A stretch of 50,338 nt of DNA from Paracoccaceae bacterium (GTDB taxonomy: Bacteria > Pseudomonadota > Alphaproteobacteria > Rhodobacterales > Rhodobacteraceae). Both the position numbers and the translations under genes were made by a program. The first letter of the stretch is position 1, and each line of letters opens with the position of its first letter. Below, in pieces: positions 11,506 to 46,427 of this stretch. Location of the stretch: the NCBI GenBank assembly GCA_026982515.1, contig JALSGY010000424.1, positions 1 through 50,338 of the forward strand, given 5' to 3'. The notes under the pieces were generated by a model. The model had not been told where the DNA came from, did not search any database, and saw nothing but the letters and a program-made list of their open reading frames with translations.

Positions 11506-11589
11506 AACAAGGCGCGCAACCGGGCAGGGGCGGGGAAATTCCAGAGATGGCTCAGAAAAAATCTTATTTTTCAATGACTTGTTCCTGCG

Positions 11590-11610: not shown

Positions 11611-11679
11611 GGGGCGCGCGCGGGGGCAGGGTTCTGTTTACCCCGGCGTCGCAGGATGGGGCCGCAGGAGGTGCAAGAC

Positions 11680-17419: not shown

Positions 17420-17502
17420 CGGGTTTCGTTTCTTGTGTCCATCCTGCCAATATAAGTTGAATTTGCCAGGGCAAAAAGGCATATCGGTCCGGTTGGATGT
17501 GA

Positions 17503-24080: not shown

Positions 24081-24083
24081 GCG

Positions 24084-25112
24084 TTACTCTCCAGGTTGAG
24101 GGGGCAGAGGTCGGGCGTCGCGCTTCGCCGGTGAAAGGAGCCTGCGCCGCAGGGCGGCCAGATCGTGGCGCGCCATGGAGCGCAGGAATTGGGGGGACAC
24201 TTCGCGTTTCTTGCGGGTCAGCGTTGCACGCAGCCAGCACAGGCCGCCACCGGTCAGGTGGGCAAGCGTCGCGAGGCCGGCATAAAGGGCGCCGTGGTTC
24301 TTGGCGAAGTAGTGCCAGCGCGAGTCGTACCAGTAGTCGGGCACCCGCGACCAGGTTTTCATTCCGGTGGACACCGAACCGATATGGGTCACGACACTGT
24401 CGCGCAGAAAAATGATCTCGTGGCCAGCAAGGCGGACGCGGCGGCACAGGTCGGTTTCCTCGAAATAGAGAAAGAAGGTTTCATCGAACAGGCCCACCTC
24501 ATCGAGCACGCTCTGGCGCATCATCAGGCTGGCCCCGGCCAGCCAGTCGACAGACTGCCCGTCGCGCGGTGTTTCGATCGGCACCCGGTGGCGGGCCAGC
24601 AGGCGGCTGACCGGCCCGAAGCGGATCGCGCTTTCGAATTCGCTGAGGATCGAGGGGAAGCGGAAAGCCGAGGTGTGCGCCACCCCGTCCTCGCCGTGGA
24701 TGTAGCTGCCGGCGAAGGCGGTTTCGGGATGGGCAACCAGGTGGTTCAGCAAAACGCGGATCGCCTCCGGCTCGGGGAAGGCATCCGAGTTTTGCACATA
24801 AATGAAATCGGGGCGCGATCCGTCACTGAGTCCGGCCCGGATGCCGACGTTGTTGCCGGCCCCGAAGCCACCGTTGTGACCGGATTGCAGAAGGCGCACC
24901 CGGTCGTTCCTGTCCCAGCCCGCGTCCGCGATGTGATTGCGGATCGTTTCATCGGAACCGTCCCGGCTGTCGTTGTCGACGATGACGATTTCACCGGCGA
25001 TGCCGTCCATCGCCGCCAATGCGGCTTCGGTTGCGCGCAGGGTCATCGGCGCCGTGCGGTAGTTCAGGATGACGGTCAGAAGTGTTGGATCCGACGTGGT
25101 ACTGGTCTGCAT
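24084..25112 (-). CDS. Family-2 glycosyltransferase embedded between the PKS and NRPS-like genes
   Basis: ATG at 25110..25112 (MQTSTTSDPTLLTVILNYRT...IVIVDNDSRDGSDE...) lies 1 nt after the PKS stop. The longer track ORF (to 25187) would overlap the PKS. The stop is 3 nt before the NRPS-like start. Confidence 0.85.
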   Translation of the reverse strand: MQTSTTSDPTLLTVILNYRTAPMTLRATEAALAAMDGIAGEIVIVDNDSRDGSDETIRNHIADAGWDRNDRVRLLQSGHNGGFGAGNNVGIRAGLSDGSRPDFIYVQNSDAFPEPEAIRVLLNHLVAHPETAFAGSYIHGEDGVAHTSAFRFPSILSEFESAIRFGPVSRLLARHRVPIETPRDGQSVDWLAGASLMMRQSVLDEVGLFDETFFLYFEETDLCRRVRLAGHEIIFLRDSVVTHIGSVSTGMKTWSRVPDYWYDSRWHYFAKNHGALYAGLATLAHLTGGGLCWLRATLTRKKREVSPQFLRSMARHDLAALRRRLLSPAKRDARPLPPQPGE

Positions 25113-25113
25113 A

Positions 25114-28100
25114 CTATTCTGCTGCCTTGATTGTTTTTGGTGGGATGCTGGTTTCGCCAGCCTCCCATGCCCGTTCTGCCGCTTCAAGCCGGTGTTTCAT
25201 TCGTGCGGCGAGAACCCGCACATTGGGTTCAAGCACCATGGAATCGTGGTCGCCCGGCACTTCGAATACCTCGATGGCATGGGCCCATCTGGTCCAGCCG
25301 TTGTCCGGAAGAAGGTAGTGGCGATGCTTGTCGACAAGCCGCCCCGGCGCCACTTCCCACTGGCCGATCTGGGGCGGGCGGATCAGGGCAAGCGGCCCGG
25401 ACCAGGGCATGACCTTGTAGGCCCCCACGCTTTCGAGGAAAGCATCCTGGATGGCCGCATTGTGGAATTCATGCGCTGCCTCGGTTTCTTCGTCATGGCC
25501 CTGGCGTTTGCCCAGTTCCCAGGCGATGCGGTTCCTTGCCCAGGTGGTCAGATAGCCAAGGCCCTGACGGCGCAGGTTGATCCAGTTGATCATGATGCGG
25601 TCGCGCCGCGACAGCGGCGGGCGCACCGGCAGGGGGGTGTCGAGCATGATCAGCTCCGACACGGTTTCGCCGGCGGCCGTCAGCTGTTGGGCAATCTCGT
25701 AGGCAATGATGCCGCCGCCGGAAAACCCGCCCAGCATGTAGGGGCCATGCGGCCGGACCTGGCGCATTTCGGCGATATAGTCGCGCGCCGCCTCGACCAC
25801 CGAGCGGTGCGGCTCCTCATCGCCGTAAAGCCCGCGCGCCTGCAGCCCGTAAAACGGCCGGTCGGCGCCCAGAAGATGCGCAAGATGGCGCAGGTTCAGC
25901 ACGTTGCCGAACATGCCGGCCACCAGGAAGAACGGGGTTTTCGGCCCCCCTTCGCCGGCATGCATCGGCACCAGGTGGGTGAAGCGGCGTTCGGTCCTGG
26001 CCACAGCCGGGGCCGGGGCGCCGTCTTCTTCGTCGGTGGCCACACCGCGCGCGGCGATCAGCTCGGCGCATTTGCGGATCGTCGGGGCTTCGAACAGCAC
26101 CGAAATCGGAAAGTCGACCTGCCAGGTCTTGCGGATCTGTGCAAACAGCCGCACCGCGATCAGGGAATGTCCGCCAAGGTCGAAGAAACTGTCTTCGACG
26201 CCGACCTGATCGACCCCGAGCAGGTCCTGCCAGAAGCCGGCCAGCCGGGATTCGATCGCATTTTCCGGGGCAACGTAGTCGGCATCGAGCTCGGGGCGCT
26301 GGAACTTCTGCTCGCTGCCCTGGTTGTCGGCCACGCTTTCGCCGGCCTGGGCGGCCAGCCCGGCGAGATCGAGCGACGACACGATCACCTGGGGCAGATC
26401 GGTGCTCAGGGCGCGCAGGAACAGGTCAGCCCCCTCGGCCGGGCGAATACCCTGGGTCAGGTTGTGGCGCAGGCGCTCTTCGGCGGGCGACAGCGGGCGC
26501 GCGGCCTCGTTGTCGGGCAGGGTGGCGACAGGGTTGTCGGCCGGGGCGGCCGCGAATTGCGCCGCGCTTTCCAGGCGGCGGATCGAAAACCCGCGGATCT
26601 CGACGCAGACGGTGCCGTCGGGGGCCGCGATGGTGACATCGAAACTTGCGGTTTCGGCGCCGGCCTCGTTTTCGCCGCTGTTGCGCACCCAGCTGACGAC
26701 CTCGGCCGGCAGGGGGCGGAAGACCCGGACCGAGCGGTAGGAAACCGGCACCCACAGGTGGGTCGGGCGATAGCCGGCGATCAGCTCCATCGCCCAGCCG
26801 GTGGCGATATCCATCAGCCCGGGGTGCAGCAGGCAGCCGGTGTCATTCCCGGCCCCGGGCAGGGCAAGCCGGGCCAGGCCCTCGCCCTGACCCAGGGCGG
26901 TTTCACGCAGCACATGCCACTGGGCGCCGAAGTTCAGCTGTGCTTCCTGGGGCGCGCTCAGCCATTGGCCCGGCGGCGCGGTGACCGGAGCGCCGCAGCG
27001 CGCGGCGATGGCCGCGGGGTCGATCGGGTCGGGGGGCGTCTGCGGCAGCAGCGAAAGACTGGCCTGGGCGTTCTGTTCGCGGTCCGCGCCGGCGCCGCTT
27101 TCAACGCTCAGGTCATAGCCGGTGTCGCTGCGTGAAAGCGTCAGGCGGATGTCACGCTCTTGTCCGTCTTCCACGGCCAGCGGGCGCAGGAAATAGAGGT
27201 CGCGGATCTCGAATGTCTGTGGCTCGCCCTGTGCGCGCAGGGCCTCGGCGGCCAGTTCGATATACCCGGTGCCCGGCAACAGCGCGTCGCCCGCGCGGGT
27301 CCGGTGCTGGTCGAGAAACCAGCGCCCGTCCGCCCGCCAGCGCGCCGTGAACAGCCGGTTGCCGGCGCCGTCGAAGCTGGCGTCGTCCAGCATCGGCTCG
27401 CCCGCCGCCTCGACCGGCGGGGGCGGGGTGGACCCGGTGCGCACCTGCATGGCATCGGCGGCCATGCCGACATCGGCCCAGATGCCCCAGTCGATGGCCA
27501 GAACCCGGGTCTTGCCGCCGGCGCGCGCCCTGGCGTAGGCGTTGAGATATTCGTTGGCCGCGACATAGTCGACCTGCCCCGGCGGGGCGGTGACGGTGGA
27601 GGTCGAGGAAAACAGCACCAGCCAGTCGAGCGCGCCATCGGGGAAGAGCTCATCGAGCACCTGGGTGCCGTGGATCTTGGGGGCGAAGACATCTTCGATC
27701 CCGGTCATCGACTTGGTCATGATCAGCCCGTCTTCGATCAGCCCGGCGGCATGGATCACGCCATTGACCGGCCCCCAGCGCCCCTCGATCTCGGCGCGGG
27801 CGGCCCGCATGTCCTCGACATTGCTGACATCGGCGGCAAGACACATGACCTGCCCGCCGGCCTCTTCCAGCGCCTGCACCGCCCGGATGCGCCGCGCCAG
27901 GCTGTCGCCGGGGGCGGTATTGCGCAGGATCTGCTCCCATTTGTCCCGGTCGGGCAGGGCGTTGCGCGACAAGAGCACGATACGCGCCGAGACCTTGCGG
28001 ATCAGGGTTTCGGCCAGGGTCAGCCCGATGCCGCCGAACCCGCCGGTGATCAGGTAGACGCCTTCTTCGCGCAGCGGTGGCACCAGGGTGTCCGGGGCGG

Positions 28101-31100
28101 CGATTTCCTGTTGCCGCCAGCCCAGTTCGAACCGCTTGTCGCCGCGCAGGGCCACGGTGGCGGTGGCCGGCGGGGCGAGCAGATCTTCGAGCAGCCGTTC
28201 GGCCAGCGCGGCCATCTGCGGATCGGGGCCGGTGCGTTTGCGGCGCGCGGGCTCCTGCGGCAGCTCCAGGTCGATCAGCGAACAGCTGAAGCCCGGAAAC
28301 TCGCGCGGGATGACCCGCGCCGGTCCGGCGATCGTGGCCTTTTCCGGATAGGCCAGCCCCTCATCGCGCACCTGTTGCGCCCCGGTGGTCAGCACGCTCA
28401 GGTGCAGCGGCATGGCCAACCCCTCGTCGCCGATGGCCTGGGCCAGAAACAGCAGGCTGTAAAACCCCTGTTCGAGATTGCGGTGGAAAAAGCTGCTGCC
28501 GGGGCGGAAGGTTTCCTTGCGGGTGGCCAGCCAGCCGTGGACGATCCGGCTCGGGGCCATGTCGCGTTCCACGAGGTCGCGGATCAGCGCGTCATAGCTT
28601 TCGCGCCCGCGCTCGGGGGCGATGATGTAACCGTCGTCGCCCATGCGCGCGAAAGTGTCGCCGGCGCGCACGGTGATCACCGGGTGCCCGGCCGCGCGCA
28701 GCCGTTCGGTGATGGCCCCGGTCAGCCCGGCGTCATCGGCAAAGACCAGCCAGGTTTCGCGCGGGGCCTCTGACAGGTCACCGCTTGTGTCGATGTCGCA
28801 GGCGGCATAGGTCGGGGTCCAGGCCGGGCGATAGCCCCAGCGCGACAGGTCATCCTCGCGCATCAGCCAGCGATTGTCGGTTTCGGCGGGTTTGCCCGGC
28901 TCGATGAAATAGGGCGCACGCTGGAAGGCGTAGCCGGGCAGCGGCACCCGCAGGCGCCGCGCGTCGCCCCAGTATTGTGCCCAGTCAAAGCGCCCCCCCA
29001 TGGCCCAGAGCCGCCCGAGCATGGCCAGGAAATAGGCATCATCGCCGATTTCGTCTTTCGGGTGGCGCAGGCTGGACATCACCTGGTTGGCGGTGGCATC
29101 GCCATGCTGGCCGGTCAGCGCGGCCAGCGCCTTGCCGGGGCCGACCTCGAGGAAGATGCGCCCGGGGGTCTGTGCCAGTGTCGCGATACAGTCGGCGAAA
29201 TGCACGGTGCCGCGCAGGTGGCCGACCCAGTAGTCGGGGTCGGTGGCTTCGGCCTCGGTGATGAACGCGCCGCTGCGGTTCGAGGTGAAGGGGATGCGCG
29301 GGGCGTGCAGCTCGATCGAGCGCAGATAGTCGCCGAAATCCTTCAGGATCGGTTCGAGCATGCGCGAATGGGCGGCAATGTCGATCGGGATGCGCTGGCA
29401 GTCGATGTCACGTTCTTTCAGCACCGCTTCCAGCGCGTCCAGCGCATCCTGGGCGCCGGTGGCGACGCTCAGCCCCGGCGCGTTGACCGCCCCGAGGTCC
29501 AGGTCGTCGCCCAGCAGCGGCTTCAGGTCTTCGGCGGGCAGGGCCACCGACAGCATGCCGCCGGCAGGCACCGTATCAAACAGGCGACCGCGCAGGTGCA
29601 CCAGCCCGATGCAGTCTTCGAACGACATGACCCCGGCCACGCAGGCGGCGGTGTTTTCCCCCATCGAATGGCCGACCAGGGCTGCCGGGCTTACCCCCCA
29701 GCTCATCCACAGCTGCGCCAGCGCATATTCGACGATCATGATCAGCGGCAATTGCACCGACGGCTGCTTGAGCCGGTCTTCGGCCTCGGCCCTGGCGCCG
29801 GGTTCGGGCAGCCAGATTGCGCGGATGTCATAGTCGAGCTTCGGCTGCAGGATTTCCAGGCCGCGGTCCATCCATTCGGCAAAGACCGGCTCGGTCTCGT
29901 AGAGGTCGCGCGCCATGCCGGCATATTGCGCCCCGCCGCCGGGGAACATGAACACGACCTCCGGGTCGTCGCCGACCACCGTGTGGGTGAAAACGCGGCG
30001 CGGGTCGTTTTCCTCGAGCAGGCGGGCGGCTTCTTCGTGGGTCTCGGCCACGACGACGCGGCGCCTTTCGAATTCGCGCCGGCCTTCCTTCAGGGTCCAG
30101 GCAATGTCGGCCAGGGGCTGTTCGGGATGGGCGCGCAGATGGGCGGCCAGCCGGGCGGCGTTGCCGTCGAGCGCGCCCTTGCTGCGCCCCGAAATGCACA
30201 GCAGCTGGAACGGCCAGTCCGAGGCTTCGGAGGCGACCCGTTCGGGGGCTTCTTCCAGAACGGCATGGGCATTGGTGCCCCCGACCCCGAGCGAGTTCAC
30301 CCCGGCCCGGCGCGGCCCCTTGTGCGATTGCCAGTCGCTCAGCCGGTCGTTGACGCGAAACGGGCTGTGCGCGAAGTCGATTGCCGGGTTCGGCTTTTCG
30401 TAGCCGAGCGAGGGCGGGATCTGGCGCCTGTGCAGCGACAGCGCGGTCTTGATCAGGCTGGCAACCCCGGCCGCGGTGTCGAGATGGCCGATGTTGGTCT
30501 TGACCGAGCCAAGCCGGCAATAGCCGGTTTCATCGGTGGTTTCGCCAAACGCCTGGGTGAGGGCGGCCACCTCGATCGGGTCGCCCAGGTAGGTGCCGGT
30601 GCCGTGGCACTCGACATAGTCGATGGTGTCGGCCGGCGTGCCGGCCATGCTGAGCGCTTCGGAAATGGCGGCGGCCTGGCCGTCGACCGACGGGGCAAGA
30701 TAGCCGGCCTTGGCGGCGCCATCGTTGTTGACGGCGGTGCCCTTGATCACGGCCCAGATATGGTCGCCGTCGGCGATGGCATCGGCCAGCCGACGCAGCA
30801 CCACGACACCCGCGCCCGAGCCGAACACCGTGCCCTGGGCGCGGTGATCGAACGCGTGGCAATGGCCGTCGGGCGACAGCACTTCGCCTTCCTTGTAGAT
30901 ATAGCCGCGCCCCTGCGGCAGTTCGATTGTCACCCCGCCGGCCAGCGCGATGTCGCATTCGCCGGTCATCAGCGCCTGGGCCGCGTAATGGGTGGCCACC
31001 AGCGAGGTCGAACACGCGGTCTGCAGGTTGATGCTCGGGCCCTTGAGGTCAAGGATGTGGCTGGCCCGCGTCGACAGGAAGTCCTTGTCGTTGCCGGTGT

Positions 31101-31563
31101 GGCGCAGCAGGAACATGCCCACGTCTTCAACCAGGTCCGGGTTCGAGCAGACGTTGAAATAAAAGTAGCTGCCCATGCCGCAGCCGGCAAACACCCCGAT
31201 CGGCCCCCTGGCCTTTTCCGGCGGGTGGCCGGCGTTTTCCAGCGCTTCCCAGGCCACCTCCAGGAACTGGCGGTGCTGCGGGTCCATGATCGCGGCTTCT
31301 TTCGGCGACAGCCCGAAGAATTCGGCATCAAAGGTTTCGAACCCTTCCAGCGGGGCGGCGGCGGGCACATAGTCGGGGCGGTTCAGCAGGTGCGGCGCCT
31401 CGCCGTTTTCCAGCAGCTCCTCGCGGCTGAACTGGCGGATCGATTCGATGCCGTCGCGCAGGTTGGCCCAGTATTGGTCTATCGAGCCCGCGCCGGGCAG
31501 ATGTGCGGCCATGCCGACGATGGCGATGTCGGTGTCGGCGCTGCGATGTGTCGTGTCATTCAT
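25114..31563 (-). CDS. Type I polyketide synthase, KS-AT-KR-DH-carrier protein-TE
   Basis: KS: QTACSTSLV (Cys184), ECHGTGT, KTNIGH. AT: GHSMGE (Ser633). KR: VYLITGGFGGIGL (aa ~1170). PS-DH: LDQHRTRAGDALLPGTGY (aa ~1420). Carrier: FFDLGGHSLIAV (Ser1800, codon 26164..26166). TE: MLGGFSGGG (aa ~1948) and VPGDHDSM. Confidence 0.9.
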   Translation of the reverse strand: MNDTTHRSADTDIAIVGMAAHLPGAGSIDQYWANLRDGIESIRQFSREELLENGEAPHLLNRPDYVPAAAPLEGFETFDAEFFGLSPKEAAIMDPQHRQFLEVAWEALENAGHPPEKARGPIGVFAGCGMGSYFYFNVCSNPDLVEDVGMFLLRHTGNDKDFLSTRASHILDLKGPSINLQTACSTSLVATHYAAQALMTGECDIALAGGVTIELPQGRGYIYKEGEVLSPDGHCHAFDHRAQGTVFGSGAGVVVLRRLADAIADGDHIWAVIKGTAVNNDGAAKAGYLAPSVDGQAAAISEALSMAGTPADTIDYVECHGTGTYLGDPIEVAALTQAFGETTDETGYCRLGSVKTNIGHLDTAAGVASLIKTALSLHRRQIPPSLGYEKPNPAIDFAHSPFRVNDRLSDWQSHKGPRRAGVNSLGVGGTNAHAVLEEAPERVASEASDWPFQLLCISGRSKGALDGNAARLAAHLRAHPEQPLADIAWTLKEGRREFERRRVVVAETHEEAARLLEENDPRRVFTHTVVGDDPEVVFMFPGGGAQYAGMARDLYETEPVFAEWMDRGLEILQPKLDYDIRAIWLPEPGARAEAEDRLKQPSVQLPLIMIVEYALAQLWMSWGVSPAALVGHSMGENTAACVAGVMSFEDCIGLVHLRGRLFDTVPAGGMLSVALPAEDLKPLLGDDLDLGAVNAPGLSVATGAQDALDALEAVLKERDIDCQRIPIDIAAHSRMLEPILKDFGDYLRSIELHAPRIPFTSNRSGAFITEAEATDPDYWVGHLRGTVHFADCIATLAQTPGRIFLEVGPGKALAALTGQHGDATANQVMSSLRHPKDEIGDDAYFLAMLGRLWAMGGRFDWAQYWGDARRLRVPLPGYAFQRAPYFIEPGKPAETDNRWLMREDDLSRWGYRPAWTPTYAACDIDTSGDLSEAPRETWLVFADDAGLTGAITERLRAAGHPVITVRAGDTFARMGDDGYIIAPERGRESYDALIRDLVERDMAPSRIVHGWLATRKETFRPGSSFFHRNLEQGFYSLLFLAQAIGDEGLAMPLHLSVLTTGAQQVRDEGLAYPEKATIAGPARVIPREFPGFSCSLIDLELPQEPARRKRTGPDPQMAALAERLLEDLLAPPATATVALRGDKRFELGWRQQEIAAPDTLVPPLREEGVYLITGGFGGIGLTLAETLIRKVSARIVLLSRNALPDRDKWEQILRNTAPGDSLARRIRAVQALEEAGGQVMCLAADVSNVEDMRAARAEIEGRWGPVNGVIHAAGLIEDGLIMTKSMTGIEDVFAPKIHGTQVLDELFPDGALDWLVLFSSTSTVTAPPGQVDYVAANEYLNAYARARAGGKTRVLAIDWGIWADVGMAADAMQVRTGSTPPPPVEAAGEPMLDDASFDGAGNRLFTARWRADGRWFLDQHRTRAGDALLPGTGYIELAAEALRAQGEPQTFEIRDLYFLRPLAVEDGQERDIRLTLSRSDTGYDLSVESGAGADREQNAQASLSLLPQTPPDPIDPAAIAARCGAPVTAPPGQWLSAPQEAQLNFGAQWHVLRETALGQGEGLARLALPGAGNDTGCLLHPGLMDIATGWAMELIAGYRPTHLWVPVSYRSVRVFRPLPAEVVSWVRNSGENEAGAETASFDVTIAAPDGTVCVEIRGFSIRRLESAAQFAAAPADNPVATLPDNEAARPLSPAEERLRHNLTQGIRPAEGADLFLRALSTDLPQVIVSSLDLAGLAAQAGESVADNQGSEQKFQRPELDADYVAPENAIESRLAGFWQDLLGVDQVGVEDSFFDLGGHSLIAVRLFAQIRKTWQVDFPISVLFEAPTIRKCAELIAARGVATDEEDGAPAPAVARTERRFTHLVPMHAGEGGPKTPFFLVAGMFGNVLNLRHLAHLLGADRPFYGLQARGLYGDEEPHRSVVEAARDYIAEMRQVRPHGPYMLGGFSGGGIIAYEIAQQLTAAGETVSELIMLDTPLPVRPPLSRRDRIMINWINLRRQGLGYLTTWARNRIAWELGKRQGHDEETEAAHEFHNAAIQDAFLESVGAYKVMPWSGPLALIRPPQIGQWEVAPGRLVDKHRHYLLPDNGWTRWAHAIEVFEVPGDHDSMVLEPNVRVLAARMKHRLEAAERAWEAGETSIPPKTIKAAE

Positions 31564-32081
31564 TGAAATGCGAAGTCCCTATCGCATCAAGTGCGGGTTT
31601 CTGAGAGTTGAAAGACTCGAAAAAAATCCAGAGATAATCAAAAAGACCAACCTTTTTCTACCGGGGGCAATTCGCCGGGTCAAACAGCGGCATTGTTGCG
31701 TATCGGGCAGTAGCATGGGACAGGCCATTCTCAAATGCGGCAGCCCGGAAAATTGCCCTGATGATCACGATCCGGCGTCAATGTTTCGTGAGCGGGCGGA
31801 TTGGTTCGGTTCCCGGCAAGATCATTCCGCGCTTTTCTGGTGAACCTGCCCGGGGTCTTGCCCGGGTGGATGGCCCGTGAGCGCGCCTTTACCCCTTGTT
31901 TTCAGGGTGAAAAAACGGGTGATCGTGGCGGTTTCCGAGAAAAAACAGGGCCATTTCCGGTTTTTTGCCCCGCTCAGCAGCGCCAATTGCGGCAGCATTG
32001 CGTTGCAATCATGGCCCCAATGGTGCAGTTTGGCCGAGGATGAGTTTCCCGGCTATTTCCGGGATATTGAAGGAGTGGGTA
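31564..32081. promoter_or_regulatory. 518-bp divergent intergenic region between the PKS operon and the VPLPA-CTERM gene
   Basis: No credible ORF. An AT-rich core lies at ~31610..31660 (gaaagactcgaaaaaaatccagagataatcaaaaagacc). The RBS GAAGGAG at 32069..32075 precedes the cargo ATG. Confidence 0.45.
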
Positions 32082-32840
32082 ATGGGGTTGAAGTTTTTGA
32101 AAGCCTGCGTGGCTTGCGCAATGGTTTATCTGCCCGCCGTCGGGACGGCGCAGGCGGCGACGGTCAATATTGTCCGGGTTGCCGATAATCCTCAGGAAAC
32201 GGTTTACGGGATTCGTGACAACACCGGGACAGACGGGGTTGATCTGGATGGTGCGATCTTTACGGCGACCTATGCCGATGGAACAAGCGAAGAGATCGTC
32301 TGGAACGCCTTGCGCACATTCAACTACAGCATCGATGGCGAAGCGGCCGGGACGGACACATATGTCTACATGAGCTGGGACGGGTTCGAAATGACGACGA
32401 CCCGCCTGCTGACCTCGCTTCTCATCCAGCTTGCTCCGGCCAGCTCGGTTTTTGACACGACGTTCATCTTCGATCCCGATCCGGCCTCTACGCCAGGGTC
32501 CAGCTTTGGCTATCCGTTCGAGCTTTACAGTGCCTATTCCGGTCTGCAGGGCAGCATCACGGCGACCTATTCGGGGATCGTGAACATGGCCGGCGATGTG
32601 GCGCGGGGCGATCTGTTCACCGACATGCTCGTCGACTTTTCGGGTCTGTCGACCGGTGGAATTCTTGGCGCCGTGAGCTTCAGGTCCGACATGGACACCC
32701 TGCGGTATGCGGGCGATCTGACGCCGATTTCCCCGGTGCCGCTTCCGGCCGGTTTCTGGCTTTTGCTGGCCGGCATGGGCGGTTTCGTGTTGAGCGGTCG
32801 CATGGCGCGGCGCGGCTCTGCGGCCCGGGTTTCCGCCTGA
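32082..32840 (+). CDS. Secreted protein with a C-terminal VPLPA-CTERM exosortase sorting signal
   Basis: Signal peptide MGLKFLKACVACAMVYLPAVGTAQA. The C-terminus reads ...PISP-VPLPA-GFWLLLAGMGGFVLSG-RMARRG (motif, TM helix, basic cluster). VPLPA is encoded at 32735..32749. I recognise no family for the ~200-aa mature domain. Confidence 0.85.
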   Translation: MGLKFLKACVACAMVYLPAVGTAQAATVNIVRVADNPQETVYGIRDNTGTDGVDLDGAIFTATYADGTSEEIVWNALRTFNYSIDGEAAGTDTYVYMSWDGFEMTTTRLLTSLLIQLAPASSVFDTTFIFDPDPASTPGSSFGYPFELYSAYSGLQGSITATYSGIVNMAGDVARGDLFTDMLVDFSGLSTGGILGAVSFRSDMDTLRYAGDLTPISPVPLPAGFWLLLAGMGGFVLSGRMARRGSAARVSA

Positions 32841-32995: not shown

Positions 32996-33841
32996 GTGTC
33001 GCAGAAGAAACGGCCTGAAAAATCGGCAGACATGGTCATTGGCTGCCTGTCAAACAACGCCGACATCCTGTCCGCCAACCTGATGCTGTCTCCGGCTGTT
33101 CGCTCGGGCGCGCTCAAGCTTGTCGTGGAAAAAAACCCGACAAGCGCCGCCACCGGCTACAACCGCATTCTTGACCGAACAGATGCTCCGATCGTTATCC
33201 TGGCCCACCATGATGTTTTCCTGCCGGATGGCTGGGAGCAGCTTCTTGCCCGCCGGATTGCGGAGGTTGAAGCGGTCGACCCGGACTGGGGGATCATTGC
33301 CCCCTACGGGATCGATGAGCATGGCACGGGGTGGGGCCCGGTCTGGTCGTCTTCGATCGGCCAGGTTGTCGGCCGCGTCGCCACCGAACCTGTCGCAATC
33401 AAGAGCAGCGACGAGTTGCTGATCGTCCTGCGGCGCCACGAAGGGCTGCGCTTTGATGAAGGCATGGCGCATTTTCATTTTTACGGGCTGGATATCGTGC
33501 AGACGGCCTGGGCCCTGGGCCATGGCGCCTGGAACGTGCCCCTGCCGCTTGTTCATAATGACAGGTTCAAGGGCGACCTGGGAGAAGACTATGCGCAGGG
33601 CTATCATTTCGTGCGCAAGAAATGGCGCGCGCAATTGCCCCTGCATTCTCCGACTGCAAAGGTTTCGTGGCACGGGCTGCATCTGCGCGGTGTCAGGAAA
33701 CGGATGCGTGAAAGCGTTGAACACAGGAAAGCCATCGCCGTTGCGGCCGAAGTTGATCCGCGCATTCATGCAGAACGCTGCGGCTGGGAAACGCTCGGCG
33801 GGGTGCCGGCGCCGGCCATCCGGCCAGCGCTGGCCTCCTGA
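32996..33841 (+). CDS. Hypothetical protein, GT-A (GT2)-like glycosyltransferase candidate
   Basis: Coding-like composition, whereas the antisense ORF 33050..33919 is Arg/Pro-rich. Segments ATGYNRILDRTDAPIVILAHHDVFLPDGW and SSDELLIVLRR resemble small GT-A enzymes. The start is GTG 32996 or ATG 33032. Confidence 0.5.
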   Translation: MSQKKRPEKSADMVIGCLSNNADILSANLMLSPAVRSGALKLVVEKNPTSAATGYNRILDRTDAPIVILAHHDVFLPDGWEQLLARRIAEVEAVDPDWGIIAPYGIDEHGTGWGPVWSSSIGQVVGRVATEPVAIKSSDELLIVLRRHEGLRFDEGMAHFHFYGLDIVQTAWALGHGAWNVPLPLVHNDRFKGDLGEDYAQGYHFVRKKWRAQLPLHSPTAKVSWHGLHLRGVRKRMRESVEHRKAIAVAAEVDPRIHAERCGWETLGGVPAPAIRPALAS

Positions 33842-34052
33842 GCGCCGGCACCGGCCTGCATGCCCGCTTTCCACTTGCCACGGCCTTTGTCGCGGGCGTC
33901 GGGACGATGCGGGCATCACAGCCCTTCTGTTTCTTGTGAGCGGAGATCGGTCATTGGCAGATGCTTCGGTGGCGACTTTCCATTAAGGCTGCTGTCAGGC
34001 GCATGTCCGGTGTGGGGCGGGCAGGGCGCGGGATGAAATGTGGTAGGGCAGG

Positions 34053-35072
34053 ATGGGCAAGCGAATTCTTCTGACTGGCGGGGCCGGGTTCATCGGTTCG
34101 CATACCTTTGTGGCTTTGGCTGAAGCCGGTCATGAGGTCACGATTCTCGACAGTTTCGAGAATGCGCATCGGGATGTTCCCGGGCGCCTGGCGCAGATTG
34201 TCGGGCAGCCCGTCGATGTGATCGAGTGCGATATCCGGGATGCCAGGGCTCTGGACGGCGCTTTTTCCGGGCGCGGGTTCGATGCGGTCGTGCATTTTGC
34301 CGCCCGCAAGAGCATCGCCGAGGGCGAGGCCGATCCGGTCGGTTATTACCAGAGCAACTGCACCGGGCTGATCAATGTCGTGGCGGCAATGCGCGCCCAT
34401 GATGTGAATGCGATCGTGTTTTCCTCGAGCGCGGCGATCTATGGCAATACCGACAGGGTGCCGATCCGCGAAGACGACGCGGTTGCCCCGATGAATACCT
34501 ATGCCCGGACCAAGGCCATCGGAGAGAACATCCTGACGGATGTTGCCCGGTCCGATCCCGGGTTTATCGTGGGCATATTGCGGTATTTCAACCCGGTGGG
34601 GGCACACCCTTCGGGGCTGATCGGGGAAGATCCGAGCCAGCCGCCTTCGAACCTGGTGCCGGTGATTGCGCGGGTTGCAAACGGAGAGCTGCCGGAACTC
34701 ATGATTTATGGCAATGACTACCCGACCCCGGACGGAACCGGTGTGCGCGACTATATTCACGTTTCGGATCTTGCGCGCGGCCATGTCCTGTCACTGGAGG
34801 CGCTACTGACACGCGGACAGGGGCATCTGGTCAACCTGGGGACGGGCCGGGGCCACAGTGTGCTGGAGGTTCTGGACGCCTATCAGGACATATGCGGGCG
34901 CAAGCTGGCACATCAGGTTGTTGCACGCCGGCAGGGTGATGCGGCAGTGTCATTTGCCGATGTTTCCCTGGCACGCGACGTTCTGGGGTTCGAGGCGCAG
35001 CATGATCTGCGGGCCATGTGCGAAAGCAACTGGCGTTTTTCACGCCGGAGTGCGTCGCCGGCCGGGGGCTGA
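34053..35072 (+). CDS. galE: UDP-glucose 4-epimerase
   Basis: Contains ILLTGGAGFIGSH, SSSAAIYG, YARTK (YxxxK) and LRYFNPVGAHPSGLIGEDP, the classic GalE signature. Confidence 0.9.
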   Translation: MGKRILLTGGAGFIGSHTFVALAEAGHEVTILDSFENAHRDVPGRLAQIVGQPVDVIECDIRDARALDGAFSGRGFDAVVHFAARKSIAEGEADPVGYYQSNCTGLINVVAAMRAHDVNAIVFSSSAAIYGNTDRVPIREDDAVAPMNTYARTKAIGENILTDVARSDPGFIVGILRYFNPVGAHPSGLIGEDPSQPPSNLVPVIARVANGELPELMIYGNDYPTPDGTGVRDYIHVSDLARGHVLSLEALLTRGQGHLVNLGTGRGHSVLEVLDAYQDICGRKLAHQVVARRQGDAAVSFADVSLARDVLGFEAQHDLRAMCESNWRFSRRSASPAGG

Positions 35073-35087
35073 AAAAGAGACTGTTCC

Positions 35088-36308
35088 ATGCGTGTTGCCT
35101 ATCTCGTCAATCATTATCCGGCCGTAAGCCACACCTTTATCCGGCGCGAAATCCGGGCGCTCGAACGCCAGGGCGTCGAGGTGGAAAGATTTGCCCTGCG
35201 CGGCTGGGACAGCGAGCTTGTCGATCCGCGCGACCGGGATGAACTGGAAAAGACGCGCCATACGCTGAAGGACGGATTGCCGCGCCTGCTGCTTGGAGCG
35301 CTGAAATGCCTGGTGCTGCGGCCGGGGCGGTTCTGGAAGGCGCTGAAACTGGCCCTGTCCATGTCGAAAAACGGGGCGCGGCCCTGGCCGTTCCACCTGG
35401 TCTACCTGGCCCATGCCTGTCGGATCGTGCAATGGCTGGAGGCAAGCGGGGCATCGCATCTTCACGCCCATTTCGGCACCAATTCCGCCGAGATCGCGGC
35501 GCTGGTCCAGGCCCTGGGGGGGCCGACATTCAGCTTCACGGCGCATGGATCGGAGGTGTTTGACGATCCGAAGGCACAGGCCCTTGAACAAAAGACCACC
35601 CATGCGAAATTCGTGGCGGCGTCCTGCGCATATATCGCCAGCCAGCTGATGTATAACGTGCCGCCTGATCTGTGGCACAAGATCAGGGTGGTCCATTGCG
35701 GGCTGCCGGAAGACGCGTTTGCCCCGAAGGCGGCTCCCTTGCCCGAACAGCCGGTGTTTCTGAGCGTTGGTCGGCTGAGTTCGGAAAAGGGGCATCTTGT
35801 CCTTCTGGAGGCCTTTTCAACGGTTCTGAAAGCACACCCGACGGCGCGGCTGGTCCTTGCCGGTGACGGGCCATTGCGGCCGCTTGTCGAGGGTCGGATC
35901 GATGACCTGGGTCTGGGGGCGGCTGTCGAGATCACGGGCTGGATCAGCTCGGACGAAGTGCGCGAGCGGATCCGCGGCTGTCGGGTGCTTGTGCATCCGA
36001 GCTTTACCGAGGGGCTGCCGGTGGTGATCATGGAAGCCATGGCACAGCGCCGCCCGGTGATTTCAACCTATATCGCGGGTATTCCCGAGTTGGTCCGGCC
36101 CGGTGAAACCGGCTGGCTGGTTCCGGCCGGCCGCGCGCGCGCGCTGGCCGAGGCCATGACCGAAAGCGCGTCCCTGCCGGCAGAGGCGCTGCAGGCGCTT
36201 GGTGATGCCGGGCATGACCGGGTCAGGATCCGCCATGATGCCGATGTCGGCGCGACGCGGCTCAGGGCCCTTTTTTGCGGGGAGCGGCCTGATGAAATCT
36301 GCCGCTAA
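35088..36308 (+). CDS. GT4-family glycosyltransferase (WcaL-like)
   Basis: N-terminus MRVAYLVNHYPAVSHTFIRREI. C-terminal FLSVGRLSSEKGH and VLVHPSFTEGLPVVIMEAMAQRRPVIST (EX7E motif). Confidence 0.8.
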   Translation: MRVAYLVNHYPAVSHTFIRREIRALERQGVEVERFALRGWDSELVDPRDRDELEKTRHTLKDGLPRLLLGALKCLVLRPGRFWKALKLALSMSKNGARPWPFHLVYLAHACRIVQWLEASGASHLHAHFGTNSAEIAALVQALGGPTFSFTAHGSEVFDDPKAQALEQKTTHAKFVAASCAYIASQLMYNVPPDLWHKIRVVHCGLPEDAFAPKAAPLPEQPVFLSVGRLSSEKGHLVLLEAFSTVLKAHPTARLVLAGDGPLRPLVEGRIDDLGLGAAVEITGWISSDEVRERIRGCRVLVHPSFTEGLPVVIMEAMAQRRPVISTYIAGIPELVRPGETGWLVPAGRARALAEAMTESASLPAEALQALGDAGHDRVRIRHDADVGATRLRALFCGERPDEICR

Positions 36309-37287
36309 ACGCGCAGCTCTCGGCCTGCTGAGTTCGGCGCCGGTGCATGGGATGTTGCGCTGGCGCGCGCTGCGAAACAAGCCGCTGACCGTTCTGTGCT
36401 ATCACACGCTGCGTCCCGACAATGAAAACCTTGATGCCTGGCTGGCCCTGCGGCTGGGTGATTTCCGCCGCCAACTGGATATCCTGCGGCGCGACTACGA
36501 TATCGTCAGCCTCGATGAAGGGCTGGAGCCTGCCCGGCCGGGCACCCGACCGCGGGCGGTTCTGACTTTCGATGACGGCGAGTGGGGACTGTATGAATAT
36601 CTGCGTCCTCTGGTCGAGGCCGAGGGCGTGCCGGTGACCGTCTATGTCGCAACCGGCCAGATCGAAAGCGGGGTGCCCTATTGGTTTGACCGGGTGATGA
36701 ATGCCTTGCAGCGCGAGGGGGCGGGGCAGATCGACCTGACGGCTGCCGGGTTGGGCCGCTGGACGGTCGGCCCGGCGCGCGGCAAGGCCCGCTGGCAGGT
36801 CATCGGCGACATACTGGAAGCGCTGAAAGCTGTGGCCCCGCCGGATCGGGAGGCCCTGGCCCAGGATGTTGTTGCCCAGGCCGGGGCAGGGGCCGGCACA
36901 GGGACAGACGCATTTTCCCCGCTCCGGCCAATGTCGGTCGAGCAGCTTCGCGATCTTGCGGCCAGCCCCCATGTGACAATCGGGGCCCACAGCCATTGTC
37001 ACAGCCTGCTGGATCAGATCCCGTTGAACGAAGCGCGCGACAGCATTGCCCGCTCACGAGAGCTTCTGCGCGCCTGGACGGGCCAGCCGGTGCGCCATTT
37101 TGCCTATCCGAACGGAAATTTTTCACCCGCGCTGGTATCTGAAATGGCGGCTCTTGGTTTTGCTTCTGCCAGTATACTTGGCGATCGGCCCGCCCCCCCC
37201 GGAAGCGACCCTTTCGCCTTGCCGCGGATCGGGATCGGCCGTTATGATGGACCCGAGCGCTTTCGGTTGCGTCTTGTCGGCATTTGA
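36292..37287 (+). CDS. Polysaccharide deacetylase (NodB-homology) family protein
   Basis: ATG at 36292 is preceded by GGGGAG and overlaps the upstream gene's end by 17 nt. Family motifs are LTFDDGEWGLY and GAHSHCHSLL, plus HFAYPNG. Confidence 0.75.
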   Translation: MKSAAKRAALGLLSSAPVHGMLRWRALRNKPLTVLCYHTLRPDNENLDAWLALRLGDFRRQLDILRRDYDIVSLDEGLEPARPGTRPRAVLTFDDGEWGLYEYLRPLVEAEGVPVTVYVATGQIESGVPYWFDRVMNALQREGAGQIDLTAAGLGRWTVGPARGKARWQVIGDILEALKAVAPPDREALAQDVVAQAGAGAGTGTDAFSPLRPMSVEQLRDLAASPHVTIGAHSHCHSLLDQIPLNEARDSIARSRELLRAWTGQPVRHFAYPNGNFSPALVSEMAALGFASASILGDRPAPPGSDPFALPRIGIGRYDGPERFRLRLVGI

Positions 37288-37423
37288 GCGGAGCAATTTT
37301 TCCGGTTTCCCGGACGTGCCCAATCAGGTGGTTCCCGTGTGACTGTATCTGACTGGTCGTCAGGCGGCACCTTTCGACGATCGGCGCTTTTTAAGCCGCG
37401 CCAAATTTCATAGTGATCAGTGC

Positions 37424-39037
37424 ATGCATAGTGAAAATGATCTTACAAGACATCGGAACCGCAAGATGAGCCTTCTCAAGGAAAGAACCGTTTTCCTGTT
37501 CATTGCGGCGGCGCTGGTGTTCGGGGCGGCCTACCGGCTGTTTCCCGTCATTGCGGGCCCCCCTGCGCTGGCGCAGTTTTTCATGACGGAAGACGGCTAC
37601 CTGATGCTGACCATTGCCCGGAACATGGCAATCGGGCTGGGAATGTCGGTGTCCGACGGCACCATCCCGAGCAATGGCGTCCAGCCGCTGGCGACATTCC
37701 TGTTTGCCCTGCCTTATCTGCTGACCGGCGGCGACAAGACCGGGGGGCTTGTCGGTGTGCACCTGATTTCTGTCGTCATTTCCGTGGCGGCGGTCTTTTC
37801 GGTGCGCGCCCTGGCGCGCGATGTGCTCAGGCCGCAGGATCCGTCCCCACTCTGGCCCTGGCTGGTGGCGGCGCTGTGGTTTGTCAGCCCGCTTTTGCTG
37901 CTGCATACGATGAATGGCCTGGAAACCGGGCTGTATACGCTCATGGTCACGGTGACCCTGTTGCTGTTCGGCCGGCTTCTGGCGCGGGGCGAGGCGGCGA
38001 CGATGCGCGATCGCCTGATCCTGGGCGGAGCCTGTGGCGTGACCTTTCTGGCGCGCAATGACGCGGTCTTCCTGATCACGGCCATATTCGCGGTCTGGGC
38101 CGTGCATGACCTGGTGACACTGCGCCGGAGCCTGGCGGATGTGGTGCTGCGCCTGATCCCGCCCGGCCTTCTGAGCGTTGCGCTTGCGGCCCCCTGGCTG
38201 ATCAACAACTACCTGAATTTCGGCTCGATCGTGCCGATCAGTGGCGCGGCCGAAGCCCGTGGCACCAGTTTCGCTGCCCATGCCGATCTGTTGCCGGCCA
38301 AACTGTTCGAACTGTTCTTCCCCATGCTGCCGGTGCCTGGCGCGCTGGAACGCAACCCGGTGTTCATGGCCGTGGCCCTGCTGCTTGTTGCCGTCATTGT
38401 GCTGAGCTTTCTTGTCGGTGTCTGGCGCCGGGGAGGGGTGATGCGGTATGTCATCGGGGCCTATGTTCTGTTCGCGCTGGCGATCTGTTTCTACTACGGG
38501 TTCACCTTTGGCGCGCCATGGTTTCTCAGCCGATACCTGTCCCCGCTTGCCCCGCTTGCAATCATCGCCAGCATTTCGGTGCTGATCGGTCTTGCGCAGC
38601 GGTTGGCGCCGGGCAACGGGGCTGCGCTGGTGCGGTTGCTTGGCGTGGCCGGGCTTGCCCTGTCTGTCGCCCTGCTGGCGCGTTTTCTTGTCCCGGGCGC
38701 CCGCGAGCAGGGGCATTTCCAGGTTGTCGAATGGGTGCAGCAGAACGTGGCGGATGAGGCCTGGGTCGGTGCCATACAGACCGGAACGCTGGGATATTGG
38801 CATGACCGGACCATCAATCTGGACGGCAAGGTCAACCCGGATGCGCTGCGGGCGCTTCAGGAAGAGGGCAATGTCCTTGACTATGTGCTGAACAGCCCGA
38901 TCGAATATCTGGCCGACTGGCACGGGATTGCCACGTGGACGACAACCGGCAACATGGGCAACACCGCATTTTCCGACAGCTTCGAGGTCGTCGTGGAAGA
39001 TCCGGCCCGCAACCTGGGAGTGCTGAAACGGAAGTGA
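37424..39037 (+). CDS. GT-C-fold-like membrane glycosyltransferase candidate (ArnT/PMT-like) with a C-terminal soluble domain
   Basis: The ~400-aa polytopic N-terminal part has an acidic first-loop motif FFMTEDGYLMLTIARNM. The C-terminal ~130 aa are soluble. The start is ATG 37424 or 37466. Confidence 0.55.
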   Translation: MHSENDLTRHRNRKMSLLKERTVFLFIAAALVFGAAYRLFPVIAGPPALAQFFMTEDGYLMLTIARNMAIGLGMSVSDGTIPSNGVQPLATFLFALPYLLTGGDKTGGLVGVHLISVVISVAAVFSVRALARDVLRPQDPSPLWPWLVAALWFVSPLLLLHTMNGLETGLYTLMVTVTLLLFGRLLARGEAATMRDRLILGGACGVTFLARNDAVFLITAIFAVWAVHDLVTLRRSLADVVLRLIPPGLLSVALAAPWLINNYLNFGSIVPISGAAEARGTSFAAHADLLPAKLFELFFPMLPVPGALERNPVFMAVALLLVAVIVLSFLVGVWRRGGVMRYVIGAYVLFALAICFYYGFTFGAPWFLSRYLSPLAPLAIIASISVLIGLAQRLAPGNGAALVRLLGVAGLALSVALLARFLVPGAREQGHFQVVEWVQQNVADEAWVGAIQTGTLGYWHDRTINLDGKVNPDALRALQEEGNVLDYVLNSPIEYLADWHGIATWTTTGNMGNTAFSDSFEVVVEDPARNLGVLKRK

Positions 39038-39084
39038 CGGGGGCTTGCGGAGGATCCGGTGGCCGGGGCGATGGGAGAGTGGAC

Positions 39085-39996
39085 ATGAAGTTCGATGAGA
39101 CGCAGCTGATGCAGGCGCGCGAAGCGCTGCTCGGCGAAGGGTCGGCCGAGCTCATCCGTTTCATGCATCATGTCAGCCTGTCACTGGACACCGGCGGCTT
39201 CCCTGCACAGACCGTTCGGCAGGCCGTTGACCTGGGCTGGATCGACGCGCAGTCCGGGCGTCCCACCGGGACGGGGGGATGTGTGGCGGATTCCTGTCGC
39301 GAATACCAGTTCTGGCTGGAACGCGCGAAAGCGCTGCCGTTCGAAGGGGCGGCACCGGGCCTGTCGCTCGAATACTTCCGGGGCAAGTCGGTTCTTGAAA
39401 TAGGGTCGGGAATGGGCGCCAACCTGATGTCGATGAGCGGGACCGCCGCCCGGGTCTGCGGCCTGGAGCCGGTGGAGTGCTATGCGCAGCTGGGGGCCAT
39501 CTTGTGTGAGCGGGAAGGGTTGCCGGCACCGGAAGTTCTGCCGGGTGCGGCCGAAGCACTGCCGTTTGGCGACAACCACGCAGAATTGATTCTCTGTGTC
39601 ACGGCGCATCAGTATTTTGACATACGCCCGGCCTTGACCGAGATTGCGCGTGTCCTGCGTCCGGGCGGAGAGCTGATCATCATCGGGGCGACGCTGGAGT
39701 CCTGTTTCAGCGAAGGGCTGGGCGAGCTGCTGCACGGGCGGCATGGCACGAAGGCCTTTGCCATCACGATCATCAATACGCTGAGCTACATGACCATGGG
39801 CCGCCGCATCATTCCCGAACGCAGCACATCGACAACGTCCCGGCCGATCTACCCCAGCCAGGCGGCCATGCATCGCTGGATGGATGCAACCGGCCTCATA
39901 CCCACCATGCCGACAGTCCGCATCGGACCCGAGACATGCTTCCGTTTCCGGTTGGCGCCAGAGGATGTCGGGGCAGCCGGGCGCCAGTTCGCATAA
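39085..39996 (+). CDS. Class I SAM-dependent methyltransferase
   Basis: ATG at 39085 is preceded by GGGAGAG. Motif I is VLEIGSGMGANL. Post-I and motif III-like segments are LPFGDNHAELILC and LRPGGELIII. Confidence 0.75.
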   Translation: MKFDETQLMQAREALLGEGSAELIRFMHHVSLSLDTGGFPAQTVRQAVDLGWIDAQSGRPTGTGGCVADSCREYQFWLERAKALPFEGAAPGLSLEYFRGKSVLEIGSGMGANLMSMSGTAARVCGLEPVECYAQLGAILCEREGLPAPEVLPGAAEALPFGDNHAELILCVTAHQYFDIRPALTEIARVLRPGGELIIIGATLESCFSEGLGELLHGRHGTKAFAITIINTLSYMTMGRRIIPERSTSTTSRPIYPSQAAMHRWMDATGLIPTMPTVRIGPETCFRFRLAPEDVGAAGRQFA

Positions 39997-40010
39997 TGTT
40001 TCTTATGTTA

Positions 40011-40031
40011 AAAGATGGCCCGTCCATCTTT
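40011..40031 (+). terminator. Weak candidate hairpin/terminator after the methyltransferase gene
   Basis: aaagatgg-cccgt-ccatcttt forms an 8-bp stem with a 5-nt loop, 15 nt after the stop codon. The stem is AT-rich and has no separate U-tract. Confidence 0.25.
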
Positions 40032-40214
40032 CCCGGCCCCGATGAGATCGGGCCATTTCGGCCCATGATGCGATGACGGGTGCCAGAATGGCGGATTATT
40101 CGTCAAACCCGGACAATTACCCATGTTTCAGCCCCCAGGACGTTGTTTTCTCGCTTCTCCCGAACAGATATCGTAAGGGCTTGCCGAAGGTATCCGCGGG
40201 ATGAAGCTGACATC

Positions 40215-41591: not shown

Positions 41592-41595
41592 CAGG

Positions 41596-42564: not shown

Positions 42565-42571
42565 GCCGCGC

Positions 42572-44116: not shown

Positions 44117-44360
44117 CCAAGGGGCCTCTTTTCAGGACGGGCGAAACAGACGAAAGTCGCTGCACCCGGGTCATTTTCTTGTTGAGGAACACCCGCTTGT
44201 CCCTGCGCTCTGCCCCCCATCGCGCGGTGCATACACCAAAGCTTGACCATTGTCATCAAAGCTGAGGGCCTCGTGTTGACGGGGAAAAATGCCCGTCGGA
44301 AACGGCCTTGGTTCGCTTTTGCCGGCCTGGGCTATATTCTTTTCTTGGCCAGAGGTAGAT

Positions 44361-46265: not shown

Positions 46266-46427
46266 GAAACAGTCCCCGCCCAGAGGGGTCGGCACGGCTT
46301 TACTCCGCAAGCGCGCATCGGCATAGAGGGCCGGTAGTTCTTGAGGGGTCCGGCCTGTGGTCTTCGGTTTCAACATATCTGCAGACATCATTCCCCCGGT
46401 GGCCCGCCTCGGCGGCCGGCGCCTCTG

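Follow-up and report, generated by a model that had tools for sequence, protein, structure and literature searches.

The plasmid, the cargo gene and xrtD

The DNA examined in the present study is contig JALSGY010000424.1 of a Paracoccaceae bacterium (GCA_026982515.1), analysed over its full length of 50,338 nt (the window). The gene in question, at 32082-32840 on the plus strand, encodes a 252-amino-acid (aa) protein ending in a VPLPA-CTERM sorting signal, hereafter the cargo, and the same contig carries xrtD, encoding the exosortase specific for such signals. Positions 1-127 of the window are identical to positions 50212-50338 (127 nt), indicating that the assembly is a circle of 50,211 bp and the window the whole replicon, which makes claims about what the replicon holds testable. 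The circle encodes a plasmid replication initiator (Pfam RPA, 331 bits) at 8678-9937 on the minus strand, and ParA/RepB-type partition genes at 10048-12720. The features of the cargo gene and of xrtD are the following:

32070-32075, plus strand: Shine-Dalgarno-like AAGGAG, 6 nt upstream of the ATG at 32082, read from the sequence
32082-32840, plus strand: cargo gene, VPLPA-CTERM protein, ATG at 32082, stop codon at 32838-32840, 252 aa
32082-32156, plus strand: signal peptide, residues 1-25, with predicted cleavage between AQA and AT (sequence features, A-x-A conservation)
32157-32735, plus strand: mature all-beta domain, residues 26-218 (AlphaFold2 model, conservation, composition)
32736-32750, plus strand: VPLPA motif, residues 219-223, presumed site of XrtD recognition and cleavage (TIGR03370)
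32751-32798, plus strand: hydrophobic transmembrane segment GFWLLLAGMGGFVLSG, residues 224-239 (sequence; modelled helix)
32799-32837, plus strand: basic cluster RMARRG (residues 240-245) and 7-residue end SAARVSA (sequence)
793-2397, plus strand: xrtD, VPLPA-CTERM-specific exosortase with a fused EpsI domain at residues 354-530 (TIGR04152, TIGR02914)

The cargo gene has a GC content at third codon positions (GC3) of 0.73, as in the adjoining polysaccharide genes, and its product has 78 database homologues at E≤1e-3, the closest relative found sharing 64% identity (Sedimentitalea). A longer TTG start at 31965 is unsupported, since the homologues begin at the position equivalent to 32082. XrtD matches the whole of TIGR04152 (1-486 of 486) at 642.2 bits (cut-off 400) and TIGR02914 at 132.9 bits, its closest relative found being 67.5% identical (Ruegeria). 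The gene occurs in 26 records of PLSDB and is common on Rhodobacterales plasmids of 50-190 kb as well as on some larger replicons. The initial annotation had placed the cargo gene about 30 kb from xrtD, which holds as a linear distance (29,685 bp), but the other way round the circle the two are 18,164 bp apart, and the apparent gap arises from where the circle was linearised.

A signal peptide and a tripartite C-terminal signal

The cargo N-terminus, MGLKFLKACVACAMVYLPAVGTAQA followed by ATVN, shows the n/h/c layout of a Sec signal peptide, with two Lys residues, a hydrophobic core and an A-x-A motif. The A-x-A pattern followed by [AT]T is kept among homologues, and in those forms of the protein that have no signal peptide the first residue falls exactly where the mature cargo is predicted to start, their M-P-[TS]-I-D-I aligning with A-T-V-N-I. 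Residues 1-25 are thus predicted to be a Sec-type signal peptide. There is no lipobox at the cleavage site, and a lipoprotein reading was rejected.

The C-terminus runs from VPLPA (219-223) through the helix GFWLLLAGMGGFVLSG (224-239) and RMARRG (240-245) to SAARVSA, which ends at residue 252. Residues 219-240 match model positions 1-22 of 25 of the NCBIfam model TIGR03370 (VPLPA-CTERM) at 28.7 bits (E 9.8e-7; curated cut-off 25.35 bits), and residues 223-249 form a helix in the AlphaFold2 model. More than 130 homologues have kept the V-P-L-P-A motif, helix and basic cluster together with the signal peptide. A hidden Markov model (HMM) that we built from 126 homologous tails and scanned against all six-frame open reading frames (ORFs) of at least 40 aa gave 31.6 bits for the cargo and 4.6 bits for the runner-up, making this the sole VPLPA tail in any reading frame of the plasmid, and a regular-expression scan of the replicon agreed on one VPLPA-tailed ORF. 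The initial annotation had described a clean Sec signal peptide cleaved at AQA-AT, a textbook tripartite C-terminal signal and a sole VPLPA-CTERM cargo on a replicon with no other protein so tailed, and all three descriptions are borne out by these searches.

The TIGR03370 match, the order of the tail, the signal peptide, an XrtD on the same replicon and an exopolysaccharide locus, which are all the testable marks of VPLPA-CTERM/XrtD cargo, are present, and the protein is therefore a further member of the known XrtD cargo class. Its near homologues already bear generic VPLPA-CTERM names at NCBI.

A compact all-beta domain without a curated model

No Pfam model at gathering score and no NCBIfam model covers residues 26-218, which agrees with the earlier remark that the mature domain was unrecognised, and a profile built from 65 domain sequences found nothing among PDB sequences at E≤10. 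Given the 65-sequence alignment, AlphaFold2 produced a compact all-beta model for the domain alone with a predicted local distance difference test (pLDDT) score of 94.2 and a predicted template modelling score (pTM) of 0.91. The fold search proposed with the initial annotation was run on this confident model with Foldseek against PDB and BFVD (viral predicted folds), counting as a match E≤0.001 or a template modelling (TM) score of at least 0.5. It returned none, the best values being E 0.086 with TM at most 0.21 in PDB, and E 0.032 with TM 0.28 in BFVD. The modelled domain is thus provisionally without a known fold, a status that is provisional because the databases searched were PDB and BFVD and because Foldseek can miss distant beta-sandwich likeness.

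If cut near VPLPA, the mature protein would have a mass of ~20.9 kDa and a pI of 4.05; Thr, Gly, Asp and Ser are abundant in it. All of 127 diverse family members have D125, G143, D177 and D205, and nearly all have D203, while D185 and D212 are invariant or nearly so among closer relatives. Residues 26-221 (32157-32744) contain no Lys, His or Cys, and domains without Lys make up 35% of CTERM-type members vs none of the 29 Hint-type members (described below). The Lys-free domain might mean that amine side chains are disfavoured where a transpeptidase acts nearby, or it may simply follow from the acidic composition.

Two further leads were rejected. A likeness to CBM2 rests on matches of a distant-member profile to PDB entries 1exg (E 0.1) and 6qfs (E 0.55), which are non-significant and a mere lead, and an internal duplication hinted at by the segments ITATYADG and ITATYSG gave no match when the two domain halves were compared by BLASTP.

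A large family in which one passenger meets different C-termini

When 1.84 billion cluster representatives (50% identity clusters) were searched exhaustively with a profile, the domain was found in 1,343 of them at E≤1e-3, in 795 at E≤1e-10 and in 96 at E≤1e-30. The first description of the domain as uncharacterised therefore stands in so far as curated libraries hold no name for it, but the domain is not rare, with at least 795 representatives at E≤1e-10. Most members are 225-265 aa long and match end to end, mostly as a signal peptide, the domain and a PEP- or VPLPA-CTERM tail; the distant members are almost all metagenome proteins. The 207 retrieved proteins with a full domain fell into the following architectures:

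N-terminal signal-like extension, domain and VPLPA- or PEP-type tail: 138 of 207
Domain and Hint_2: 29 of 207
Domain and RTX repeats: about 10 of 207
Domain and Big_9 or cadherin-like repeats: about 5 of 207
Domain and other long C-termini: about 13 of 207
Remainder of the 207: 7 more CTERM-tailed proteins and 5 other proteins

An N-terminal signal-like extension is present in 138 of the 145 CTERM-tailed members, while the domain starts at residue 1-6 in 52 of the 57 Hint, RTX, cadherin-like or other long-C-terminus forms. Pfam confirms Hint_2, Big_9 plus Hint_2, HemolysinCabind and Cadherin_4/5 as partners of the domain, and no Pfam families other than sorting motifs (PEP-CTERM, 108; VPDSG-CTERM, 19) have matches in over three of the 127 members.

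By pairwise identity the Sec-independent forms make up one cluster, sister to the VPLPA subgroup of the cargo, and share ~52% identity with the cargo vs 37% for the median CTERM-type member. This placement suggests that the Hint and RTX forms were derived from within Rhodobacterales exosortase cargo. The exchange falls at nearly the same point of the chain: after a conserved GDL, the P-x-P of the sorting motif follows within 3-10 residues and the Hint Cys1 within 8-10 residues, and both the Cys1 and the [ST]xxH motifs are kept in all 29 Hint forms. One passenger thus appears to have moved among exosortase, Hint and type I-secretion contexts at nearly one junction. We rejected the idea that the Hint forms are polymorphic toxins whose N-terminal domain serves as a secretion-targeting module in the cytoplasm, as most members place the domain behind a Sec signal peptide.

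Simple domain-plus-Hint_2 forms carry a C-terminal extension of ~57 aa. Distant PEP-CTERM-type relatives of the cargo occur as four tandem paralogous genes of 232-236 aa each beside a Flp/Fap pilin gene (locus L062, 10001-13494; also L063), vs a single copy of the domain on the window plasmid.

An island of polysaccharide, polyketide synthase and cargo genes

The cargo gene is the first gene of an 18-kb polysaccharide array that ends at xrtD, and it is directly divergent from a polyketide synthase (PKS) operon, as the initial annotation had noted. The surrounding features are the following:

31564-32081, no strand: divergent intergenic region from PKS1 to the cargo gene, 518 bp (no sigma-70 consensus, no Rfam match)
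32996-48392, strand not assigned: array of polysaccharide genes that separates the cargo gene from xrtD on the circle (NCBIfam, Pfam; synteny with three Litoreibacter loci and a Ruegeria plasmid)
18781-31563, minus strand: divergent PKS operon (Pfam, NCBIfam)

The array contains a conserved gene of unknown function (32996-33841), galE, a GT4 glycosyltransferase (GT) gene, and genes for a deacetylase, a large membrane protein (37424-39037) and a methyltransferase, then a Wzx flippase, a GT2 (minus strand), a Wzy-like protein (42572-44116, minus strand), a PKD-domain protein and an AsnB-type amidotransferase. In the PKS operon, PKS1 (25114-31563, minus strand; KS-AT-KR-DH-ACP-TE) is followed by a GT2 and by PKS2 (1,542 aa), which combines a formyltransferase, an A domain split by a luciferase-like monooxygenase and a PCP; a phosphopantetheinyl transferase gene comes last.

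A genome scan found 56 loci with the domain, nearly all in Rhodobacterales genera, of which 11 were VPLPA-type. Homologues of the genes of the window plasmid adjoin the cargo homologue in 7 of these 11, and none of the VPLPA-type loci examined has a second VPLPA-tailed ORF within 10 kb of it. In one Litoreibacter locus (L025) the order is Wzx, GT2, Wzy-like, AsnB, XrtD, GT, cargo, the same unknown gene as in the window, GalE and GT4, with an XrtD 66% identical to that of the window encoded 2.6 kb upstream of the cargo homologue. Two other Litoreibacter species (L006, L007) have GalE, GT4, deacetylase, membrane protein, methyltransferase, cargo, PKS1, GT and PKS2 in one direction. A Marinosulfonomonas metagenome-assembled genome (L004) has the divergent PKS arrangement of the window and the nearest PKS1 relative found (76.5% identical). 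The PKS operon is kept beside the cargo gene in three genera, and it occurs also on plasmid pW43C of Parasedimentitalea marina.

On pW43C the homologous PKS operon and polysaccharide genes are accompanied by a 477-aa protein of domain, Big_9 and Hint_2 instead of the VPLPA form, and the first 48 kb contain no xrtD homologue. This protein (locus L059, 24747-26180) is annotated as 'Hint domain-containing protein' and has a short C-terminal extension after Hint_2; its gene has Wzz-like, tyrosine-kinase and sugar-transferase genes as neighbours and is 8 kb away from the PKS operon. The closest XrtD plasmid, that of Ruegeria sp. SCSIO 43209, has a polysaccharide-PKD-AsnB-XrtD module in common with the window. 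Judged by gene content across these replicons, the island is modular, consisting of a polysaccharide/XrtD module, a PKS module and the cargo gene, and the window plasmid has all three.

Type I PKS-like genes (rkpA) of rhizobial capsule loci are thought to make the lipid carrier of the polysaccharide. A comparable role would fit the steady linkage of the PKS to polysaccharide genes and cargo, and the operon may, by this analogy, be the source of a lipid primer for the polysaccharide.

Comparison with known systems

The closest known system is VPLPA-CTERM/XrtD itself (TIGR03370 and TIGR04152), the Rhodobacterales branch of the PEP-CTERM/exosortase systems, with which the window shares the signal peptide, the tripartite signal, the XrtD-EpsI fusion and a polysaccharide locus on a Rhodobacterales plasmid of 50-90 kb. 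The cargo departs nowhere from the definition, and its mature domain is one without a model of its own. PEP-CTERM systems often have many copies of cargo, whereas this replicon has one cargo gene.

PepA of Aquincola and Zoogloea (NF033554; PMC9850573) is likewise a protein of ~250 aa with a signal peptide, a beta-rich domain and an exosortase tail, is encoded with polysaccharide genes and has been proposed as a matrix component, but it carries PEP-CTERM and is tied to XrtA rather than XrtD. The cargo has no match to NF033554 (80-bit cut-off); for distant family members the scores shown were 26.5-27.5 bits (best E 2.9e-9), below that cut-off and owing much to the common tail, and the profile search of the family returned no PepA-named protein. 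Homology of the mature domain to PepA is therefore unsupported, and homology to PepA, EDSAP-1, THxN and NF038129 was rejected, the distant-member matches being sub-threshold and largely explained by the common tail.

Rhodobacterales proteins with Hint_2 (PF13403) share the N-terminal domain of the cargo, with the chain cut at almost the same point after GDL, and the Hint and the exosortase tail would both free the C-terminus of the same passenger. They differ in having no signal peptide and in using intramolecular thioester chemistry in place of a membrane transpeptidase; the cargo has no Hint. Hedgehog-type and bacterial intein-like autoprocessing domains belong to the same comparison. RTX and cadherin-like adhesins (type I secretion) carry the domain as the N-terminal head of proteins with RTX, Big_9, Cadherin_4/5 or CshA repeats, whereas the cargo has no repeats and uses Sec and an exosortase tail. 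Gram-positive sortase/LPXTG systems offer the same layout of signal peptide, C-terminal motif, helix and basic tail, a membrane transpeptidase and an enzyme with a dedicated substrate nearby, but the enzyme family is unrelated and the envelope is Gram-negative.

Proposed processing and role of the cargo

We consider it probable, with moderate confidence, that the cargo is a dedicated plasmid-borne substrate of XrtD, and a surface or matrix protein processed by that enzyme, probably with its domain as a ligand-binding head. Other exosortase and sortase systems suggest, as analogues, the following course: the 25-residue signal peptide would direct Sec export and then be removed, after which the C-terminal helix and RMARRG would anchor the protein in the inner membrane so that VPLPA faces the periplasm. 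XrtD would then cut at or near VPLPA and pass on the acidic all-beta domain of ~195 residues, probably to some part of the surface polymer that the co-encoded polysaccharide and PKS genes produce, or to the cell exterior. At the surface the domain may act as a ligand-binding or matrix-building head that helps to hold polysaccharide and cells together.

That XrtD cleaves this tail we infer from the tail lying over the curated cut-off, the full-length XrtD on the same circle, the absence of any other such tail there, and the contrast between CTERM-tailed members, with their N-terminal extensions, and the other forms, which start with the domain. Exosortases are described, in 10.1101/2023.06.07.544157, as cleaving PEP-CTERM. 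The island genes adjoining the cargo homologue in 7 of the 11 VPLPA-type loci, and the Hint Cys1 falling close to where the sorting motif would start, count in favour as well. An extracellular head is suggested by the position of the domain at the N-terminal tip of Big_9, cadherin-like and RTX proteins, and by its acidic, Cys-free, compact all-beta character with conserved Asp and Gly. A binding or matrix role is suggested by its place on the tips of repeat stalks, by the four-paralogue arrays of distant relatives and by the analogy of PepA, a PEP-CTERM protein that is required for floc formation, moves polysaccharide from the soluble to the bound fraction and has several processed forms (PMC9850573).

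Several observations weigh against this interpretation. The cargo tail is just 3 bits over the TIGR03370 cut-off and has 7 extra residues after the basic cluster. Island genes are absent from the neighbourhood in four of the 11 VPLPA-type loci, and on the Ruegeria sp. SCSIO 43209 plasmid neither PKS nor cargo was found in the 41.5 kb examined of 89 kb, so XrtD needs no such protein nearby. Foldseek gave no match of the mature domain to any lectin or adhesin in PDB and BFVD, and CBM_2 is absent from the Pfam families listed (25 of 37) for the 127 family members. The searchable literature yielded no experimental work on XrtD or on VPLPA-CTERM proteins, and no sigma-70 consensus promoter was found in the 518 bp upstream of the cargo gene by a crude E. 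coli-type consensus.

Among the alternatives, the mature domain could be an enzyme acting on the polymer of the island (a hydrolase, lyase, epimerase or transferase) that XrtD sorting just puts in place, which we regard as unlikely. The conserved D125, D177, D205 and D203 would suit a catalytic or metal site and the gene lies among polysaccharide-modifying genes, but no enzyme family resembling the domain was found in the sequence (Pfam, PDB) or fold searches, its occurrence at the N-terminal tip of repeat stalks and in four-paralogue tandem arrays is typical of adhesins or structural cargo, and conserved Asp and Gly at strand ends would fit the Ca2+ sites of marine extracellular proteins equally well. 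More doubtful still is a plain tail-anchored membrane protein, in which the helix would be a permanent inner-membrane anchor and the domain periplasmic, with XrtD uninvolved. The narrow TIGR03370 score, the lack of processing data in the searchable literature and the four loci without island genes speak for it; yet the motif, helix and basic cluster are conserved with the signal peptide in well over a hundred homologues, XrtD is encoded on the same plasmid and, in L025, close to the homologous gene, other members display the domain on RTX and cadherin-like scaffolds that are clearly extracellular, and sister proteins swap the tail for a self-cleaving Hint domain at nearly the same junction. 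That the ORF is spurious or unexpressed is highly improbable, since the want of a sigma-70-like promoter comes from a crude scan and stands against a ribosome-binding site at the right spacing, coding-type GC3, hundreds of full-length homologues with conserved synteny and a confident AlphaFold2 model.

A bolder version of the XrtD-substrate interpretation, to which we give a low probability, is that the domain is a new fold and, as a head that binds polymer or surface, belongs to a lipid-primed capsule or exopolysaccharide produced by the co-inherited PKS and polysaccharide genes. The exchange of exosortase tail and Hint at nearly one residue would then mean that the two devices do the same job, joining an activated C-terminal acyl group to a like acceptor. 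Were it true, the self-contained Hint paralogues would offer a simple in vitro route to the long-sought acceptor of exosortase cargo.

Exosortase systems have been predicted in thousands of genomes, and most of these genomes hold dozens of cargo proteins, which blurs genetics. Here one sorting enzyme and one cargo gene share a 50-kb plasmid, within a polysaccharide cluster that the cargo presumably serves, and they therefore form a clean pair for knock-outs and C-terminal proteomics. The swap of Hint for exosortase signal at nearly the same junction is a natural comparison for what C-terminal processing achieves, and together the plasmid and the swap give handles on what exosortases join their cargo to. 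Ecologically, the setting is that of marine Roseobacter-group bacteria attaching to surfaces and aggregating, and plasmids of such size often bear these traits. The sorting system itself is ordinary; what is new relative to curated libraries and the searchable literature, which held nothing relevant on Rhodobacterales Hint proteins, is a large and coherent cargo-domain family without a curated model or detectable structural relative, its fixed place in the XrtD/polysaccharide/PKS island of several genera, and the apparent exchange of the passenger among exosortase, Hint and type I secretion at one junction.

Other features of the plasmid

No Rfam match at E≤1 was found upstream of the cargo gene, and a riboswitch or other RNA element was rejected. 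The sole well-conserved stretch between the two divergent PKS-cargo intergenic regions is the 12-nt block GCGGATTGGTTC (window 31796-31807; L004 9613-9624). As an operator common to such regions it was rejected, being present in L004 only and not in the other 63 loci, and not above chance in the window.

The AsnB-type amidotransferase (46341-48392, plus strand) scores 580 bits on the model of the XrtA/PEP-CTERM system amidotransferase (cut-off 817), and its gene lies just upstream of xrtD on both the window and Ruegeria plasmids as well as in L025. The protein looks like the XrtD-system counterpart of the XrtA-linked enzyme. Two long ORFs overlap at 42458-44185 (plus strand, GC3 0.65) and 42572-44116 (minus strand, GC3 0.71). 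The plus-strand ORF is probably a shadow ORF, since the minus-strand one has the higher GC3, a sub-threshold Wzy_C match and, in position and strand, a counterpart on the Ruegeria plasmid that is annotated as an O-antigen ligase family gene. A PKS2 homologue is named as a member of the MupA/Atu3671 family.

At 12815-15988 (minus strand) a 1,057-aa protein with a hydrophobic N-terminal signal has no Pfam or NCBIfam match and no sorting tail; a homologue (52% identical) is encoded directly upstream of the cargo homologue in another locus of the scan (L005). A 333-aa protein without a family match is encoded at 16481-17482 (minus strand), with a lipobox-like LLLLGAC near its N-terminus, and homologous proteins are encoded in L005, next to the pW43C PKS and close to xrtD of the Ruegeria plasmid.

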